The notes: a model not told the origin generated them from the letters alone. A stretch of DNA of 64,000 nucleotides from an uncultured Syntrophomonadaceae bacterium (GCA_964441025.1 CAYTXG010000003.1:63527-127526), one strand, 5' to 3'; numbered from the stretch's first letter, positions 27,522-52,681 are shown. Numbers and translations are program-made.

Positions 27522-27622
27522 AAGATGGTGCCAAGGGGGGGCCGGGCGTACCCGGCTGAGATAGAACTGAGCTGTTCTGACCCTTCGAACCTGACCTGGG
27601 TAATGCCAGCGTAGGGAACATA
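27522..27622 (+). promoter_or_regulatory. TPP (thi-box) riboswitch
   Basis: GGGGGGCCGGGCGUACCCGGCUGAGA...GACCCUUCGAACCUGACCUGGGUAAUGCCAGCGUAGGGAA matches the THI element consensus, including CUGAGA and AAUGCCAGCGUAGGGAA. Confidence 0.9.
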
Positions 27623-27639
27623 CTTGCCGCCTTGATCAT

Positions 27640-27679
27640 AAAGGCTGCAGCTGCCGTTGGCTGCAGCCTTTGTCTTTGC
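27640..27679 (+). terminator. Riboswitch expression platform: intrinsic terminator
   Basis: AAAGGCUGCAGC-ugccguu-GGCUGCAGCCUUU followed by GUCUUUG, between the aptamer and the first transporter gene. Confidence 0.7.
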
Positions 27680-27723
27680 GGAAAACGAGCCGTTGTGATC
27701 ACCGCTGAAAGGGGGAAGCTGCC

Positions 27724-28513
27724 GTTGAAAAAATGGGGAAACAACAGAGAGCGCCTGCCGGCACTGCTGCTTTCTACAGCGCTGATCACTTTTTGGGAAC
27801 TGATCTGCCGGAAACTCAAACTTCCGGAATTCATCTTGCCCGCTCCATCACGCATCGTGCAGGCGCTCGTTGGAAATTTTCCCCTGTTGATGAGACATAC
27901 CTCCGTCACGCTCTATGCCGTTCTAGCCGGGCTGCTGCTGGCTGTAATCGTAGCCGTGGCCATGGCTGCAGCAATGGACCGCTGGAGACCGCTAAAAACA
28001 GCGCTGTACCCGCTGCTGGTTGTTTCGCAAGCCATCCCCATCTTTGCCCTGGCGCCGCTAGCCCTGATCTGGCTGGGCGTAGATCTGAAACCTAAAATTG
28101 CCGTGGTCGCCCTGGTCTGCTTCTTCCCCCTGGCGGTAAACATGGTTGAGGGGTTGGAACAGGTTGACCCCGCCGCTCTTGAACTGATGAAGGTGATGCA
28201 AGCCCGTCCCTTGTTTATCTTTAAGCAGGTCCGGCTGCCCTCGGTGCTGCCGCACTTCTTTGCAGGATTGAAAATATCGGCCACCTACAGCGTGATGGGT
28301 GCGATTATTGGAGAGTGGCTGGGCGGCAGCGCCGGCCTGGGTGTGTACATGACCCGGATGATGCATTCTTACAAAGCGGGCCACCTTTTTGCCGCCGTGA
28401 TCATCGCGGTGCTGCTCAGCCTTGCTCTTTTCAACATCAGCGAACTGCTGGCCTGGATCGTCATGCCCTGGAGCAGGAAAGAGCACAACAAAAATTATAT
28501 CGGGAGTGAGTAG
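27724..28513 (+). CDS. ABC transporter permease (thiamine-precursor ThiX/ThiY/ThiZ-type)
   Basis: TTG start with AAAGGGGGAAG RBS. (M)KKWGNNRERLPALLLSTALITFWE... and an ABC permease EAA loop. The track start at 27632 overlaps the riboswitch. Confidence 0.8.
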
Positions 28514-28515
28514 GT

Positions 28516-29538
28516 ATGTTCCGGACAATCAATGCAAGCAGAAGAAGACTTGTGTGGAAAACAGTGCTTCTCCTGATCCTTTTAACCGGCCTGGCTGCAG
28601 GAGCGGGATGCGCCGGGAGGGAAACACCGGCGCTCGACGAGGTTACCGTTCTCCTGGATTGGACTCCGAATACCAACTACAGCGGTCTTTTTGCAGCAAG
28701 GGATAAAGGATACTACCTGGAGGAAGGCCTTGAGGTAAAGATCGAGGAAGCGGGGGCCAATGTGCTGCCCCTTGTGGCTACAGATAAAGCGCAATTTGGG
28801 GTAAGTTACCAGGAACAGGTTACATTTGCCCGACTGAATGATAATATCCCCGTTGTTTCCATTGCTGCGGTAGTGCAGCACAACAGCTCCGGGTTTGCTT
28901 CGCTCAGGGAAAAAGGAATCAATTCTGTTGTCGATTTTGAAGGCAAAAGCTACGGCAGCTGGGGGACGGAAGTGGAGGAGGCTACCATTAAAGCGCTGAT
29001 GGATAAAGAGGGAGCCGATTTTGACAGCGTCAGCATCGTCACTATCGGGGAGACCGATCTTTTTGCAGTTATTGAAAAGCTGGCCGACTTTGCCTGGATC
29101 TATTACGGCTGGGACGGCATCGCCGCTGAACAGAAAGGGGCGGAGCTGGATTTCATTCCCCTGCGAGATCTGGACCCGTCTTTCGATTACTATACACCCG
29201 TCATCATCAGCAGCGAAACGCTCATCAATGAGCATCCCGACCTAGTTGAAAGATTTATGCGGGCAACAGCAAAAGGCTACCGCCTGGCTATTGACAGCCC
29301 CGAAGAGGCGGCGGAAATACTGCTGCGTAATGTCCCGGAACTTGACGGCGATCTGGTCAGAGCCAGCCAGGACTGGCTGAAAGATAAATACAGTGACGAT
29401 GCTGAAATATGGGGTCTGCAGAAGAAAGAGGTCTGGGAAAATTACAGCCGCTGGCTTCTTGAGCGCGGGCTTGTTGACAGGATGCTCGATGTGGACAAGG
29501 CTTTTACCAACAGGTTTATTCTGGGGAAAGCGGATTGA
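28516..29538 (+). CDS. NMT1/THI5-like substrate-binding lipoprotein (HMP/FAMP-binding, ThiY-like)
   Basis: Lipobox LAAGAGC. LDWTPNTNYSGLFAARDKGYY... NMT1/THI5 signature. Confidence 0.8.
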   Translation: MFRTINASRRRLVWKTVLLLILLTGLAAGAGCAGRETPALDEVTVLLDWTPNTNYSGLFAARDKGYYLEEGLEVKIEEAGANVLPLVATDKAQFGVSYQEQVTFARLNDNIPVVSIAAVVQHNSSGFASLREKGINSVVDFEGKSYGSWGTEVEEATIKALMDKEGADFDSVSIVTIGETDLFAVIEKLADFAWIYYGWDGIAAEQKGAELDFIPLRDLDPSFDYYTPVIISSETLINEHPDLVERFMRATAKGYRLAIDSPEEAAEILLRNVPELDGDLVRASQDWLKDKYSDDAEIWGLQKKEVWENYSRWLLERGLVDRMLDVDKAFTNRFILGKAD

Positions 29539-29705
29539 GCAGCCCCGTAAAATATGAATGGTAACCTTTAGACAGGTACCCTGCGCGCCCTTGCCTTTGG
29601 TGCAATTGAGGCCCACCCCCCTGCGCACGGTCCCCGGCAGGAGGGCGGGAAAGCATGAATAAATTCAAAGGGGCGGGCCAGTCCCCCCCCCGGAGGGTAT
29701 GTGTA

Positions 29706-30476
29706 ATGAAAACAGCAGGGCTGCAGCTGGAGGATGTCAGCTCAAGCTATCACTTTGGAAATGAAAGCCTGCCTGTGCTAAAAAACATCTCGATCACCCT
29801 GGGCGCGGGCGAGTTTGTTGCGCTGCTCGGCCCCAGCGGCTCCGGTAAAAGTACCCTGTTAAGGATCGCCGCCGGGCTGCTCAAACCCGACAGGGGCCGG
29901 GTGCTCCTTGAGGGTCGGGATATTACCGGGCATGCCGCCCGGGTCGGCTACATGCCGCAGCAGGACCTTTTATTTCCCTGGAAAACACTGCTCCAAAATG
30001 CCGCGCTGCCGCTGTTGAGCGCCGGCCTGTCCGCAGAGGAGGCCCGCGCCCGTGTCTCTGCACTGCTGCCCGTTTTCGGCCTTGACGGTTTTGCCTTATA
30101 CTACCCTGATCGCCTGTCGGGGGGTATGAGGCAGCGGGCAGCACTGCTGCGCACTATTCTAATGGAGGGCAGCCTGCTGCTCCTTGATGAGCCTTTTGCT
30201 GCGCTCGATGCTCTCACCCGGGAAAACCTGCAGGGGTGGCTGCTGCAAATTTTAAGCCGTTTTCAAAAAGCGGTTCTCTTTGTAACTCACAGCGTCGACG
30301 AGGCGATCTATCTGGCCGACCGTATCTATATGATCTCGGAGCGCCCGGGCCGGATCATCCTGGAGATGAGGGTTGATCTGCCCCGGCCCCGCTCCCGCAG
30401 CGTGGTCACAACACCCCTGTTCACCTCATACAGGCAGGCGCTGATGGAGGCGCTCGCAAAAACGCCAACGGCGTAA
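29706..30476 (+). CDS. ABC transporter ATP-binding protein of the thi transporter
   Basis: Walker A GPSGSGKST, signature LSGGMRQR, Walker B LLLDEPF. GGAGGG RBS before the internal ATG at 29706. Confidence 0.85.
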   Translation: MKTAGLQLEDVSSSYHFGNESLPVLKNISITLGAGEFVALLGPSGSGKSTLLRIAAGLLKPDRGRVLLEGRDITGHAARVGYMPQQDLLFPWKTLLQNAALPLLSAGLSAEEARARVSALLPVFGLDGFALYYPDRLSGGMRQRAALLRTILMEGSLLLLDEPFAALDALTRENLQGWLLQILSRFQKAVLFVTHSVDEAIYLADRIYMISERPGRIILEMRVDLPRPRSRSVVTTPLFTSYRQALMEALAKTPTA

Positions 30477-49151: not shown

Positions 49152-49442
49152 ATGCCGGGGGAGGAGAACCGGATTGGATTTAAAGTTATCGGGACGATCA
49201 AGGAAATAAAGGGTTACTGCAGCGCAGGGCATAAAGCAGGGGACAGCATGGAGTTGAGCATGCATAAAACAGGAGGGCTGTGCGGTGCTTTTTATCACGA
49301 CATCTATCCCTACATCCTTATGATGCAGATGGGGGGCAGTTTTCCCGCCCAGTGGGGGGATGCCGATGTCCTGGAATTTGAGTGCATGGACAGGTATAAC
49401 GCAGCAAAGATCGAGCTGAGAAGGGTGCGGGATTCAGGCTAG
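49152..49442 (+). CDS. TIGR04076-family small Cys/His-rich protein
   Basis: GYCSAGHKAGD...GGLCGAFYHDIYPYILMMQMGGSFP fits the TIGR04076 pattern. Confidence 0.5.
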   Translation: MPGEENRIGFKVIGTIKEIKGYCSAGHKAGDSMELSMHKTGGLCGAFYHDIYPYILMMQMGGSFPAQWGDADVLEFECMDRYNAAKIELRRVRDSG

Positions 49443-49559
49443 GGAGAAAACGCCCGGCCCCTACTTTTCCAGGTTTACTGCCTGCTGATCTAACAATTAT
49501 TAAAATAACAGAAATTTGGGGGTTGACAGGCAGACGCCGATATGATAGGTTTTTAAAAA

Positions 49560-49825
49560 CCGATGAAGCGGGAGTAAAACCACTGCCAGCCGCGCAGAGA
49601 GCCGGATCAGGTGAAAACCGGCCGGTAATGGGGTGGATAAATGGGCCGCCGAGGGCGGGGCGAAAGGATGAAAGCCGAGTAGCTTCCGACGCAGCGCCGG
49701 CGTTACATGGCGAAGGGTGTGATGGCACTCTGCAGAGTGGATGCTTCGAGCAATCGTGCATCAACCAAGGTGGTACCGCAGGCAAAGAGCCTGCCCTTGA
49801 TCAAGGGCAGGCTTTATTGGTTTAT
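49560..49825 (+). promoter_or_regulatory. T-box riboswitch leader
   Basis: Stem-I-like elements GAUGA...GGAGUA...AGAGAG. Conserved T-box AAGGUGGUACCGCAG at 49767..49782. Intrinsic terminator GCCUGCCCUUGAUCAAGGGCAGGC + UUUAUUGGUUU at 49789..49823. Confidence 0.7.
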
Positions 49826-49918
49826 GCGGTCCCCGGGACTCTATTTATATCCGCGGATGAATAGAGTACTGCAGGGAAACCCTCAAAAAAATACATTTAT
49901 ATTGAGGAGGAACCCTGG

Positions 49919-50944
49919 ATGAAAAAAGTTATCACGGTGTTCTTGTCGGCTTGTTTGTTGGTTGCGCTGCTTCTCCTGGGCGCCTGCACTCCGGATAAAA
50001 ATGGCGGAGGCAACGGAGAAAATCCGGCAGATGATGAAATCGGGGGGGAATTGAAAAAGGTGGGCATTGTCCAGATCATGGAGCACCCCTCGCTGAACAC
50101 GATCCGCGAATCCATGATCGCCGAACTGGCTTCGCTGGGCTTTGTTGACGGTAAACAGATCATCATCGATTACCAGGATGCACAAAGTGATCCGAGCAAT
50201 CTTAAAACAATCTGCCAAAAATTTGCCAACCATGAATACGACCTGATCGTGGCCATCGCCACTCCCTCGGCACAGGCGGCCGTGGGAGAGACAACGAAGA
50301 TCCCCATTCTCTTTTCCGCCTGCACGGACCCGGTGGGGTCGGAACTTGTCGATAACCTGGAAAAACCGGGCGGAAATGTTAGCGGCACCTCCGATGCCGT
50401 ATCGGCGGAACAGATCATGGAGCTGGCAGTGCGAATCACCCCGAATATCAAGAGGATCGGAGCGCTTTACAACTCCAGCGAGACCAACTCTGTTTCTGTG
50501 ATCAATGACCTGAAGGCCTATGCCGCCCGCAACGGGATGACGGTGGTAGAGGCGACAGCGACCAACACCTCGGAGGTGCAGCAAGCGGTGCAGTCCCTTG
50601 TGGGCAAAGTTGACGCCATCTTCTCACCCATCGACAACACGGTGGCCTCGGCCATGCCCCTCGTGGCCCAGGTGACCAGGAATGCGAAGATTCCCATGTA
50701 TGTGGGCGCAGACTCCATGGTTAATGACGGAGGCCTGGCCACATACGGGGTCAACTATGTGACCCTGGGCCGGGAGACGGCCAGAATGGCGGCGGAAATC
50801 CTGAATGGTAAAAGGGCGGGCGATCTGCCGGTCAGGATGATCACCGATTTTGAAATCTACCTCAACCTGGAAACAGCCGAAATGATCGGGGTAACCATCC
50901 CCGATGATATAATTGATGCGGCGGTCGAAGTATTTGGCAAATAA
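49919..50944 (+). CDS. ABC transporter substrate-binding lipoprotein (COG2984 / PF04392 type, substrate unknown)
   Basis: Lipobox LLGAC. VGIVQIMEHPSLN... GAGGAGGAA RBS. Confidence 0.8.
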   Translation: MKKVITVFLSACLLVALLLLGACTPDKNGGGNGENPADDEIGGELKKVGIVQIMEHPSLNTIRESMIAELASLGFVDGKQIIIDYQDAQSDPSNLKTICQKFANHEYDLIVAIATPSAQAAVGETTKIPILFSACTDPVGSELVDNLEKPGGNVSGTSDAVSAEQIMELAVRITPNIKRIGALYNSSETNSVSVINDLKAYAARNGMTVVEATATNTSEVQQAVQSLVGKVDAIFSPIDNTVASAMPLVAQVTRNAKIPMYVGADSMVNDGGLATYGVNYVTLGRETARMAAEILNGKRAGDLPVRMITDFEIYLNLETAEMIGVTIPDDIIDAAVEVFGK

Positions 50945-50968
50945 ACTTAAGGAGCCATATAAACAGCA

Positions 50969-51886
50969 TTGATTAATTTAGCCACCTTTCTTAGTTCAGT
51001 GGAACTGGGTGTAATCTACGCCATCATGGCCCTGGGCGTGTTCCTCTCCTTTCGCACGCTGAACATGCCCGACCTGACCGTTGACGGCAGCTTTGTTCTC
51101 GGCGCGGCGGTCTCGGCGGTGCTCTGCACCGCCAGCCGCCCTCTGGCGGGCATCGCCCTGGCCCTGGCTGCGGGAGCACTGGCCGGCATCGTGACAGCAC
51201 TGCTGCATACAAAACTGAAGATCCAACCCATTCTTTCAGGGATCCTGTCCATGCTGGCGCTGTACTCCGTCAACCTGAAGGTGATGGGCGGCCGGGCCAA
51301 TATACCCCTGCTTAACCGGAAGACTGTCTTCAGCCTTCCGGAATGGATGCCGGCCTTTGATCGTACTGCACTGATCATCTCCCTCGTGTTGCTGGCAGCG
51401 GTGATACTGCTGCTGTACTTCTTTTTGAAGACCAGGATCGGCCTGGTTTTAAGGGCCACAGGCGACAACGAGCAGATGGTGCGGGCGCTGGGCGTGGACA
51501 CCGACCTGACCAAGATCATCGGGCTGGCTCTGGCCAACGCTCTGGTGGGGTTGTCGGGAGCACTTATCGCCCAGTACCAGTCTTTTACCGATGTGGGCAT
51601 GGGCATCGGTATGGTCATCATCGGGCTGGCCTCGGTGATTATCGGCGAGGCTGTCTTCGGCACTGCCGGCCTGATGCGCAGGCTCTTCGCCGTAATCCTG
51701 GGGGCAATCCTCTACCGGCTGGTAATCGCTTTCGCTCTCGAACTGGGTATGCCGCCGACAGATCTTAAACTCATCTCAGCGGTTATTGTCTGCGCCGCCC
51801 TGTCTATGCCTGCGATCAAGGGGCAGTACTCTTCACTGAAAAAAAGGCTGTTCACCCCGGCCGGCAATAAGGAGGCGCCGCTGTAA
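50969..51886 (+). CDS. ABC transporter permease (COG4120 type)
   Basis: 305 aa, about 8-9 TM. TTG start. Confidence 0.75.
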   Translation: MINLATFLSSVELGVIYAIMALGVFLSFRTLNMPDLTVDGSFVLGAAVSAVLCTASRPLAGIALALAAGALAGIVTALLHTKLKIQPILSGILSMLALYSVNLKVMGGRANIPLLNRKTVFSLPEWMPAFDRTALIISLVLLAAVILLLYFFLKTRIGLVLRATGDNEQMVRALGVDTDLTKIIGLALANALVGLSGALIAQYQSFTDVGMGIGMVIIGLASVIIGEAVFGTAGLMRRLFAVILGAILYRLVIAFALELGMPPTDLKLISAVIVCAALSMPAIKGQYSSLKKRLFTPAGNKEAPL

Positions 51887-52681
51887 ATGCTCACAGTCAA
51901 CTCCATCAGCAAAACATTTGACCGGGGCAGTGTCAATGAAAAAAGGGCGCTGCACCGGTTGAGCCTCTCTCTCGAAAAGGGCGAATTTGTTACTGTCATC
52001 GGCGGCAACGGCGCAGGCAAGTCCACCCTGACAAACTGTATCTCAGGTGTTTATGAGGTTGACTCGGGGAGCATTATTCTTGACGGCGGCAATATCACCT
52101 TCAGCCCCGAGTACAGACGCTCCCGCCTCATCGGCCGGGTTTTCCAGAATCCGCTTCTTGGTACCGCTTTCGACATGACCATCGCCGAGAACCTGGCCAT
52201 CGCCTGGGCCAAGGGAAAACGGCACGGTCTCACCGCCGGCATTACCGGATCCGACCTGGCCTTTTTCCGGGAACGCCTGGCCCTGCTGGAGCTGGGACTT
52301 GAAGATCGGATTAACCAGAAAGTTAAGCTGCTCTCGGGCGGTCAGCGCCAGGCGCTCACTCTGCTCATGGCCACCCTGACCCGGCCCAGGCTTCTGCTGC
52401 TTGACGAACATACCGCCTCACTCGACCCGGCCATTGCCAAAAAGGTGCTTGCCCTGACCAGTAAGTTTGTCTCCGAAGGCAAGCTGACTACGATCATGAT
52501 CACGCACAACATGAAAGCCGCACTTGAATACGGCAGCCGGACGATCATGATGCACGAGGGTGAGATTATCCTCGATCTCGCAGGAAAAGTAAGGGCCGAG
52601 ATGACGGTGGAACGGCTGATCAAATACTTTGAAGGCCGCAGCGGCACCCGCCTGGAAAACGACTGTCTCCTTTTAGCCTGA
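51887..52681 (+). CDS. ABC transporter ATP-binding protein (COG1101 type)
   Basis: GGNGAGKST, LSGGQRQ, LLLDEHTASLD. The ATG abuts the permease stop. Confidence 0.85.
   Translation: MLTVNSISKTFDRGSVNEKRALHRLSLSLEKGEFVTVIGGNGAGKSTLTNCISGVYEVDSGSIILDGGNITFSPEYRRSRLIGRVFQNPLLGTAFDMTIAENLAIAWAKGKRHGLTAGITGSDLAFFRERLALLELGLEDRINQKVKLLSGGQRQALTLLMATLTRPRLLLLDEHTASLDPAIAKKVLALTSKFVSEGKLTTIMITHNMKAALEYGSRTIMMHEGEIILDLAGKVRAEMTVERLIKYFEGRSGTRLENDCLLLA

Follow-up and report, generated by a model that had tools for sequence, protein, structure and literature searches.

The closest described counterparts of the system reported here are the tryptophan ABC (ATP-binding cassette) transporters of streptococci, encoded by the trpXYZ genes of Streptococcus suis and S. 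pneumoniae, in which a PF04392 lipoprotein binding protein is followed by a permease and then by an ATPase. In S. suis, trpX, trpY and trpZ belong to one operon, and mutation of trpX impairs growth when tryptophan is low; the trpX leader contains a T-box with the specifier UGG and the bulge UGGC, and expression goes up under tryptophan limitation (Dresen et al. 2022, PMC9382623). As cited there, the name TrpXYZ comes from the tryptophan ABC transporters of other streptococci (Panina et al. 2003). Streptococci have already provided a described and tested case of T-box control for the PF04392 transporter family, and T-box-regulated ABC transporters are covered, in general terms only, by Wels et al. 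(2008). In addition, three PF04392 proteins have been solved with their ligands, namely SP1069 with tryptophan (PDB code 3LFT), VC_1101 with phenylalanine (PDB code 3LKV) and CD0873 with tyrosine (PDB code 6HNI) (Bradshaw et al. 2019, PMC6816091). The present analysis deals with a stretch of 64,000 nucleotides, hereafter the window, from an uncultured Syntrophomonadaceae bacterium (GCA_964441025.1 CAYTXG010000003.1:63527-127526), and more precisely with a leader RNA and the three-gene operon located behind it between positions 49,443 and 52,681. With a probability of roughly 0.82, a T-box responding to tRNA-Trp drives there a PF04392 aromatic amino-acid importer, the most likely substrate of which is L-tryptophan, in a manner analogous to the streptococcal TrpXYZ.

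The locus adds a case from a syntrophic-Clostridia-like genome to a known pairing of T-box and transporter, and consists of a standard attenuator devoid of any new mechanism. Like the streptococcal operons, it encodes a PF04392 lipoprotein binding protein, a permease and an ATPase in that order; like the S. suis operon, it is preceded by a transcriptional T-box in which the specifier is UGG and a terminator alternates with an antiterminator, induction being predicted when tryptophan becomes scarce; and the residues by which streptococcal TrpX holds the amino-acid backbone are conserved. The leader of S. suis is longer, however (461 nt versus ~270 nt in the window), and has UGGC in the bulge where the window has UGGU. 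The host, a Syntrophomonadaceae-like member of the Clostridia that has not been cultured, differs from the tryptophan-auxotrophic pathogen S. suis. With respect to canonical T-boxes of the Bacillus subtilis tyrS type (RF00230, PMC7583486), the leader contains all modules in the canonical order, with a terminator overlapping the antiterminator. The earlier note on this DNA, written from the sequence, had described the transporter as uncharacterised and its substrate as unknown; this part of it does not stand, taking into account the three ligand-bound structures, the NCBIfam TrpX model and the studied trpXYZ operon of S. suis.

The leader was recognized by the Rfam T-box covariance model RF00230, which in E-value mode aligned over its entire length (model positions 1-219 of 219) to 49554-49801 of the plus strand with 83.6 bits, corresponding to E = 9.7e-19 for the leader alone and 1.3e-16 across the whole window. 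An nhmmer profile built from 22 homologous leaders gave 243 bits against the leader of the window. Simpler criteria were less informative: the 12-nt T-box core taken alone did not exceed chance in the window (2 matches at ≤1 mismatch versus 1.6 expected), and Stem I folded alone by minimum free energy (MFE) did not yield the canonical fold (z-score -0.5). Since the latter outcome is expected for a motif-rich Stem I, covariance-model alignment and covariation were relied on instead. Together, the E-value and the covariation described below uphold the T-box leader proposed in the earlier note, all elements of which were found at their places, including the K-turn, the GGAGUA/AGUA motif and the AGAGA(G) motif that it had called Stem-I-like (Table 1). 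An open reading frame of 155 amino acids on the opposite strand (window 49318-49785, minus strand) overlaps the leader; it is most likely spurious because the region evolves by compensatory changes of the RNA type.

Used as the query against genomes, the binding protein retrieved 54 related loci of 42-87 % identity, mostly from uncultured Syntrophomonadaceae and other Clostridia, the nearest relatives (≤87 % identity) occurring in metagenome-assembled genomes of uncultured Syntrophomonadaceae. The gene order binding protein-permease-ATPase is conserved across these loci, and an equivalent leader lies 5' of the orthologous operon in 23 of them. Twenty-two leaders were aligned, from relatives with binding proteins 50-87 % identical to that of the window, with an architecture comprising a Stem I of six helices, Stems II and IIA, a pseudoknot (IIB), one additional hairpin, Stem III and the antiterminator helices A1 and A2; the pairing frequencies given hereafter refer to this alignment. 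In the antiterminator conformation, 94.7 % of the alignment cells are paired, versus 34-45 % after a shift of the 3' partners by 1-3 columns, and compensatory double changes occur in 30 of 59 pairs; none of 500 shuffles reached the observed values. In the terminator conformation, 93.7 % of the cells are paired and 31 of 61 pairs are compensatory. Moreover, columns 267 and 272 show covariation with two different partners, one located in helix A2 and the other in the terminator, which is what selection acting on two mutually exclusive folds predicts.

The covariation extends over all modules of the leader. The six helices of Stem I are paired at 84-100 %, with compensatory changes in 10 of 20 pairs, and its motif bases are invariant (G12 A13 / G98 A99, A43 G44 G46 A47 and T59 G60 A63). 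Helices 9-10, forming IIA and IIB, are paired at 94-99 %; the F-box GCGUUA is invariant, and the pseudoknot pairs, 94 % paired, show compensatory changes among CG (8), AU (4), GC (2), UA (1) and GU (1). The extra hairpin, an insertion relative to the Rfam model, is 98 % paired with 4 co-varying pairs (helix 11); it is lineage-specific instead of Trp-specific, because it also occurs in a Lys-type leader of locus L020, described below. Insertions of unknown function have been found in every T-box domain (PMC7583486). Stem III (helix 12) is 85 % paired with 3 co-varying pairs, and C209, A210 and A211 are invariant; the motif 5'-RRRxG-Stem III-AA-3' to which it belongs is a hallmark of the discriminator domain, as is the UGGNACC bulge (PMC7583486, 2020 review).

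The 3' part of the leader consists of two structures that share one strand. The antiterminator (-13.9 kcal/mol) is built up from helices 13-14, 99 % paired, whereas the G+C-rich terminator hairpin (-22.8 kcal/mol; helix 13, 94 % paired, 5 co-varying pairs) re-uses the 3' arm of the antiterminator as its own 5' arm, the common stretch being 49786-49799. Because the terminator is the more stable of the two, the default state is expected to be OFF. The near-consensus T-box sequence located 5' of a strong terminator, which the earlier note had pointed out, is therefore accompanied by mutually exclusive antiterminator and terminator structures that can be drawn and are each backed by covariation. 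Upstream of the leader, the TTGACA / TGnTAGGTT pair proposed as promoter-like in that note corresponds to predicted elements conserved in 21 of 21 related leaders, where TTGACA and an extended -10 (TGTGnTAnnnT-like) occur at a fixed spacing. The -10 hexamer of the window is weak, with 3 of 6 consensus positions, and the promoter was not listed by a consensus scan; the relatives read TGTGnTAtAAT-like.

The identity of the effector depends on the specifier, which the earlier note had left unassigned while predicting from T-box control an amino acid or a close derivative as ligand. The 3' side of the specifier loop of the Rfam model (GAAauuca) aligns to UAAAUGGG, so that the triplet preceding the last loop base is UGG, a codon for tryptophan, which adds the amino acid to the predicted ligand class. 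This UGG occurs in 23 of 23 leaders possessing a Stem I (the window and 22 related ones, that of locus L010 included), and the helix that closes the loop on its 3' side varies in composition (CG 8, GC 7, AU 6, UA 1). In the window, UGG is followed by the purine G49645 and then by the CCGC strand of the closing helix; the position of G49645 is occupied by G in 19 of the 23 leaders, by A in 3 and by U in 1. Since the specifier is invariant in all 23 leaders, tRNA-Trp is the probable effector. In bacterial tRNA-Trp the discriminator base is typically G73. The fourth base of the bulge (N of UGGN) is U in 21 and C in 3 (L005-L007) of 24 leaders, taken from the window and the 23 loci; both UGGU and UGGC can pair with G73, and the U/C variation is thus indirectly compatible with this base.

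From these elements, a mechanism similar to that of other transcriptional T-boxes may be proposed. A promoter of the sigma-70 type (TTGACA, 17 nt, TGnTAGGTT) would initiate a leader RNA of ~270 nt, in which the UGG of the Stem I specifier loop would pair with the CCA anticodon of tRNA-Trp while the AG bulge and the distal loop would dock the elbow of the tRNA. With an uncharged tRNA, the 3' end NCCA would pair with UGGU in the bulge, stack on helix A1 and stabilise the antiterminator, allowing read-through into the operon; with a charged tRNA, the aminoacyl group would be sterically rejected and the terminator would form, stopping transcription at ~49820. Tryptophan starvation would consequently induce the uptake system.

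The operon itself was assigned from its protein families. PF04392, BPD_transp_2 and ABC_tran were matched by the three successive genes at 49919-52681, which agrees with the PF04392-type ABC system announced in the earlier note. The PF04392 match of the binding protein covers profile positions 1-292 of 293, i.e., its full length; the only NCBIfam match is NF041285, the tryptophan ABC transporter substrate-binding protein TrpX, and the PDB relatives are 6HNI, 3LKV and 3LFT, with E-values of 4.6e-76, 6.3e-68 and 3.6e-65, respectively. Five residues, T115, A134, T136, D159 and N240, conserved in 52-53 of 53 loci, align with T71, A90, T92, D115 and N196 of SP1069 (chain numbering), which bind the alpha-amino and carboxylate groups; owing to the conservation of these backbone contacts, the ligand is most probably an alpha-amino acid. 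No tryptophan biosynthesis gene adjoins the operon within the window.

Table 1. Features of the T-box leader and of the transporter operon, with positions counted from the first letter of the window.
Feature	Position	Strand	Description and basis
-35 hexamer	49523..49528	+	TTGACA; read from sequence; kept in 21/21 related leaders
Extended -10	49543..49551	+	TG-a-TAGGTT, 17 nt after the -35; read from sequence
T-box leader RNA, complete	49554..49825	+	approximate transcription start to terminator U-tract; RF00230 and nhmmer
Stem I	49560..49654	+	Rfam alignment, invariant motif columns, covariation
K-turn	49562-49567 with 49650-52	+	GAUGAA with CGA; Rfam alignment
Stem I helices		+	GCGG/CCGC, CCAC/GUGG, CC/GG, CCG/CGG, GCCGG/CCGGC; Rfam alignment
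GGAGUA/AGUA motif	~49570-49576	+	read from sequence
AG bulge	49593-49600	+	motif AGAGA(G) at ~49596-49601
Stem I distal loop	49606-49617	+	Rfam alignment
Specifier triplet UGG (Trp)	49642..49644	+	Rfam alignment, invariant columns T89 G90 G91
Stem II	49656..49688	+	GAAA/AGUA S-turn-type internal loop; helices 7-8, six pairs with compensatory changes
Stem IIA and F-box	49689..49712	+	ACGC/GCGU; F-box GCGUUA (49700-05); alignment
IIB pseudoknot	49695-98 with 49709-12	+	CGCC with GGCG; covariation
Extra hairpin	49714..49731	+	predicted by RNAalifold; insertion relative to the Rfam model
Discriminator, 5' part	49735..49764	+	purine string GAGUG (RRRxG) 49735-39, Stem III 49740-49762, AA 49763-64; motif of PMC7583486
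Antiterminator	49766..49799	+	helix A1 CAAGG/CCUUG, helix A2 GCAGGC/GCCUGC; MFE fold of truncated leader
T-box sequence	49767-49781	+	AAGGUGGUACCGCAG; read from sequence
T-box bulge, 7 nt	49771-49777	+	UGGUACC, between A1 and A2; fold and sequence
Intrinsic terminator	49786..49825	+	13-bp stem 49786-49815, loop GAUC, then U-rich UUUAUUGGUUUAU; fold, covariation
Ribosome-binding site	49904..49910	+	GAGGAGG, 8 nt before ATG; read from sequence
Lipoprotein substrate-binding protein, TrpX-like	49919..50944	+	341 aa, lipobox LLGAC; PF04392 3e-86
Permease, TrpY-like	50969..51886	+	BPD_transp_2, Pfam 1.4e-34; exact start codon uncertain
ABC ATPase, TrpZ-like	51887..52681	+	ABC_tran, Pfam 2.5e-27; start abuts permease stop codon

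Several observations weigh against the assignment of the locus to tRNA-Trp and tryptophan, some of them concerning the RNA and the others the binding protein. The RF00230 match, significant by its E-value, scores below the curated gathering score of 93, an operational threshold that does not represent a biological feature, and the T-box is absent from the gathering-threshold Rfam scan of the window, in which a thiamine pyrophosphate (TPP) riboswitch was the sole report. Insertions of considerable length are present in the alignment, mainly 19 nt that follow the F-box but also a longer Stem II loop, and these insertions (the extra hairpin and the longer loop) probably lower the score. Similarly, the leader of L010 (3654-3921) reaches 76.1 bits, also below 93, and judging from these two scored leaders, at 83.6 and 76.1 bits, the tryptophan T-boxes of the clade are likely to be missed by routine Rfam annotation. 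A second departure from canonical T-boxes resides in the foot of helix A2, where the pair adjoining the bulge is G49778-C49794 in place of the usual G.U steric sensor. The corresponding columns 254/272 show G-C in 8 leaders, those of the window and of the 7 relatives closest to it, versus G.U in 14; according to the T-box literature G-C is a rarer, functional alternative at this position, and the idea that it represents an anomaly was rejected on this ground. Thirdly, the specifier is followed by G where A is usual, and in the leader of L032 even by U. Finally, tRNA-Trp was looked for as a source of the discriminator base, and neither the window nor the 54 loci contain a tRNA gene.

With regard to the binding protein, the NF041285 equivalog score of 326.8 bits falls short of the cutoff of 390, and the identity amounts to 44 % with CD0873, 41.6 % with VC_1101 and 39.5 % with SP1069; judged by its sequence, the protein lies outside the streptococcal TrpX equivalog, and in this respect differs from SP1069, to which it is only ~40 % identical. 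Two positions of the pocket have been associated with ligand selectivity in the solved structures: position A, occupied by Glu in the Tyr binder and by Ala in the others, and position B, where the Trp binder has Gln and the binders of Phe and of Tyr have Tyr, a residue stated to keep tryptophan out by steric hindrance (Bradshaw et al. 2019, PMC6816091). HMMER alignments place Ala264 at position A and Tyr280 (50753-50755) at position B of the window protein, and as a check of the numbering, Val235-Pro236 of CD0873 are located exactly where the offset predicts. Tyr280 occurs in the window and in 51 of 51 loci for which the position is covered, in contrast to the Gln responsible for Trp selectivity in streptococcal TrpX (Q284 in SP1069, Q273 in S. 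suis). The Ala/Tyr pair is found in all members of the clade, every T-box-linked one included, with the exception of a Desulfitobacterium homologue with Glu/Tyr. The clade, which is characterized by the motif GADSMV...G(I/V)NY and comprises Syntrophomonadaceae and some Oscillospirales, also possesses an invariant Asp265 (50708-50710) adjoining position A. VC_1101 and CD0873, both with 42-44 % identity and E about 1e-68 to 1e-76, share with the window protein the Tyr at position B, and VC_1101 also the Ala at position A, whereas CD0873 differs by a Glu that binds the tyrosine hydroxyl; Asp265 is replaced by Thr in VC_1101 and by Ser in CD0873, and is Thr or Ser in all three solved structures. 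T-box control is not mentioned in the sources consulted on VC_1101 and CD0873, including PMC6816091.

This pocket gives its weight to the idea that tRNA-Trp is indeed sensed by the leader but that the preferred substrate is not tryptophan, being instead phenylalanine, a broad aromatic/hydrophobic range or a tryptophan-related amino acid. What tryptophan starvation induces would then be an importer of aromatic amino acids in general instead of one dedicated to tryptophan. The Ala264/Tyr280 pair is identical to the 'default' pocket of Phe-bound VC_1101, whereas Trp-bound SP1069 displays Ala/Gln; the sub-cutoff TrpX score and the greater proximity to CD0873 and VC_1101 than to SP1069 point in the same direction, and the loss of a homologous transporter lowers the uptake of both Tyr and Phe in C. 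difficile, indicating that the family is capable of handling aromatic amino acids beyond a single one. Against it stands the regulation: T-box specifiers generally match the amino acid supplied by the regulated gene, and UGG occurs in 23 of 23 leaders of the clade, never UUC/UUU or UAC/UAU. The two-residue selectivity rule is moreover based on three structures only, the invariant Asp265 could substitute for the contact between Gln and the indole, and a broad-specificity importer would import tryptophan as well. A substrate other than tryptophan accordingly appears unlikely. Tryptophan as the transported amino acid would be indicated by the T-box regulation, not by the pocket, and Asp265 might, as a hypothesis only, be the alternative partner of the indole NH. 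It is conceivable, at somewhat less than even odds in our estimation, that these proteins constitute a large clostridial PF04392 clade wired to tRNA-Trp by its T-box and yet provided with an Ala/Tyr 'phenylalanine-default' pocket from which the published rule excludes tryptophan.

The leader profile found no match in 31 of the 54 loci, among which L008, L018, L023 and L052 have ≤132 nt of upstream sequence; a number of the Syntrophomonadaceae copies belong to these 31, as does every gut copy of the Ruminococcus type. None of the 16 of them that were scanned gave an Rfam T-box match, and neither Rfam nor the leader profile matched at L051, a homologue of the tyrosine type (Glu/Tyr), or at the gut Ruminococcus/Oscillospiraceae homologues, where a T-box with a different specifier would have allowed specifier and pocket type to be calibrated against each other. 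Two Syntrophomonadaceae homologues without a T-box, L014 (3740-3995) and L017 (3820-4000), display a TTGACA-type promoter followed by a 5' untranslated region of ~130-170 nt without an Rfam match.

A shift of the specifier by one base would change the effector altogether, since an AUG (49641-49643) overlaps the UGG and would imply the sensing of tRNA-Met by a methionine-related importer. In 22 of 23 leaders such an AUG precedes UGG by one base. In elongator tRNA-Met the discriminator base is A73, with which the UGGU bulge would pair perfectly. However, an AUG specifier would leave two unpaired bases, not a single purine, before the closing helix, and it is UGG that falls at the specifier position of the Rfam alignment; the leader of L016 reads UUGGG, keeping UGG and losing AUG; and the UGGC bulges of L005-L007 and S. 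suis cannot pair with A73. On the strength of the unpaired bases, L016 and the UGGC bulges, the methionine register was rejected as very improbable, the more so as the binding-protein family binds aromatic amino acids. A second T-box was observed on the plus strand of L020 (3819-4088), downstream of the transporter operon and with a matching architecture that includes the extra hairpin; it carries AAG/AAA (Lys) at the specifier position and a UGGU bulge, and the gene under its control is cut off at the end of the contig. Its appearance is that of a duplicated scaffold whose specifier has been altered, and it provides a partial check of the specifier position, since the triplet varies there on a constant scaffold, although both possible registers encode Lys.

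That the element is instead a decayed T-box remnant or a mere intergenic terminator, the operon being expressed from another promoter downstream, could draw on the sub-threshold RF00230 score, the weak -10 hexamer, the G-C in place of the G.U sensor pair and the ~95 nt separating the terminator from the start codon, but is hardly credible given that every functional motif is intact, that the promoter is conserved, that compensatory covariation affects every helix, including the pseudoknot and both 3' structures, among relatives with binding proteins 50-87 % identical to that of the window, and that T-boxes with G-C as the sensor pair are known to function.

Elsewhere in the window, the TPP riboswitch (RF00059) occupies positions 27524-27634 of the plus strand with 61.8 bits, above its gathering score, directly upstream of genes 27632-30476, which encode a BPD_transp_1 permease, an NMT1/THI5-like binding protein and an ABC ATPase, a standard arrangement for the uptake of thiamine precursors. 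A weak match to the cspA thermoregulator (RF01766; 9496-9941, plus strand), with 33.5 bits versus a gathering score of 78 and E = 6e-5, is probably not meaningful.

The mismatch between the ligand deduced from the T-box and that expected from the Ala/Tyr pocket rule offers an inexpensive test case for the selection of Trp, Phe and Tyr by PF04392 proteins. If the proteins of the clade bind tryptophan, they would represent a second, independent mode of indole recognition in which Asp265 may be involved, and the two-residue code would be wrong or incomplete; if they do not, a T-box specifier would be mismatched to the substrate of the transporter it controls. The close homologues appear in public records under the generic name 'ABC transporter substrate-binding protein', and the T-box-linked loci could be re-annotated, by means of their UGG specifier, as a 'tryptophan-starvation-induced aromatic amino-acid importer', which bears on the amino-acid cross-feeding and the auxotrophy of syntrophic anaerobes.

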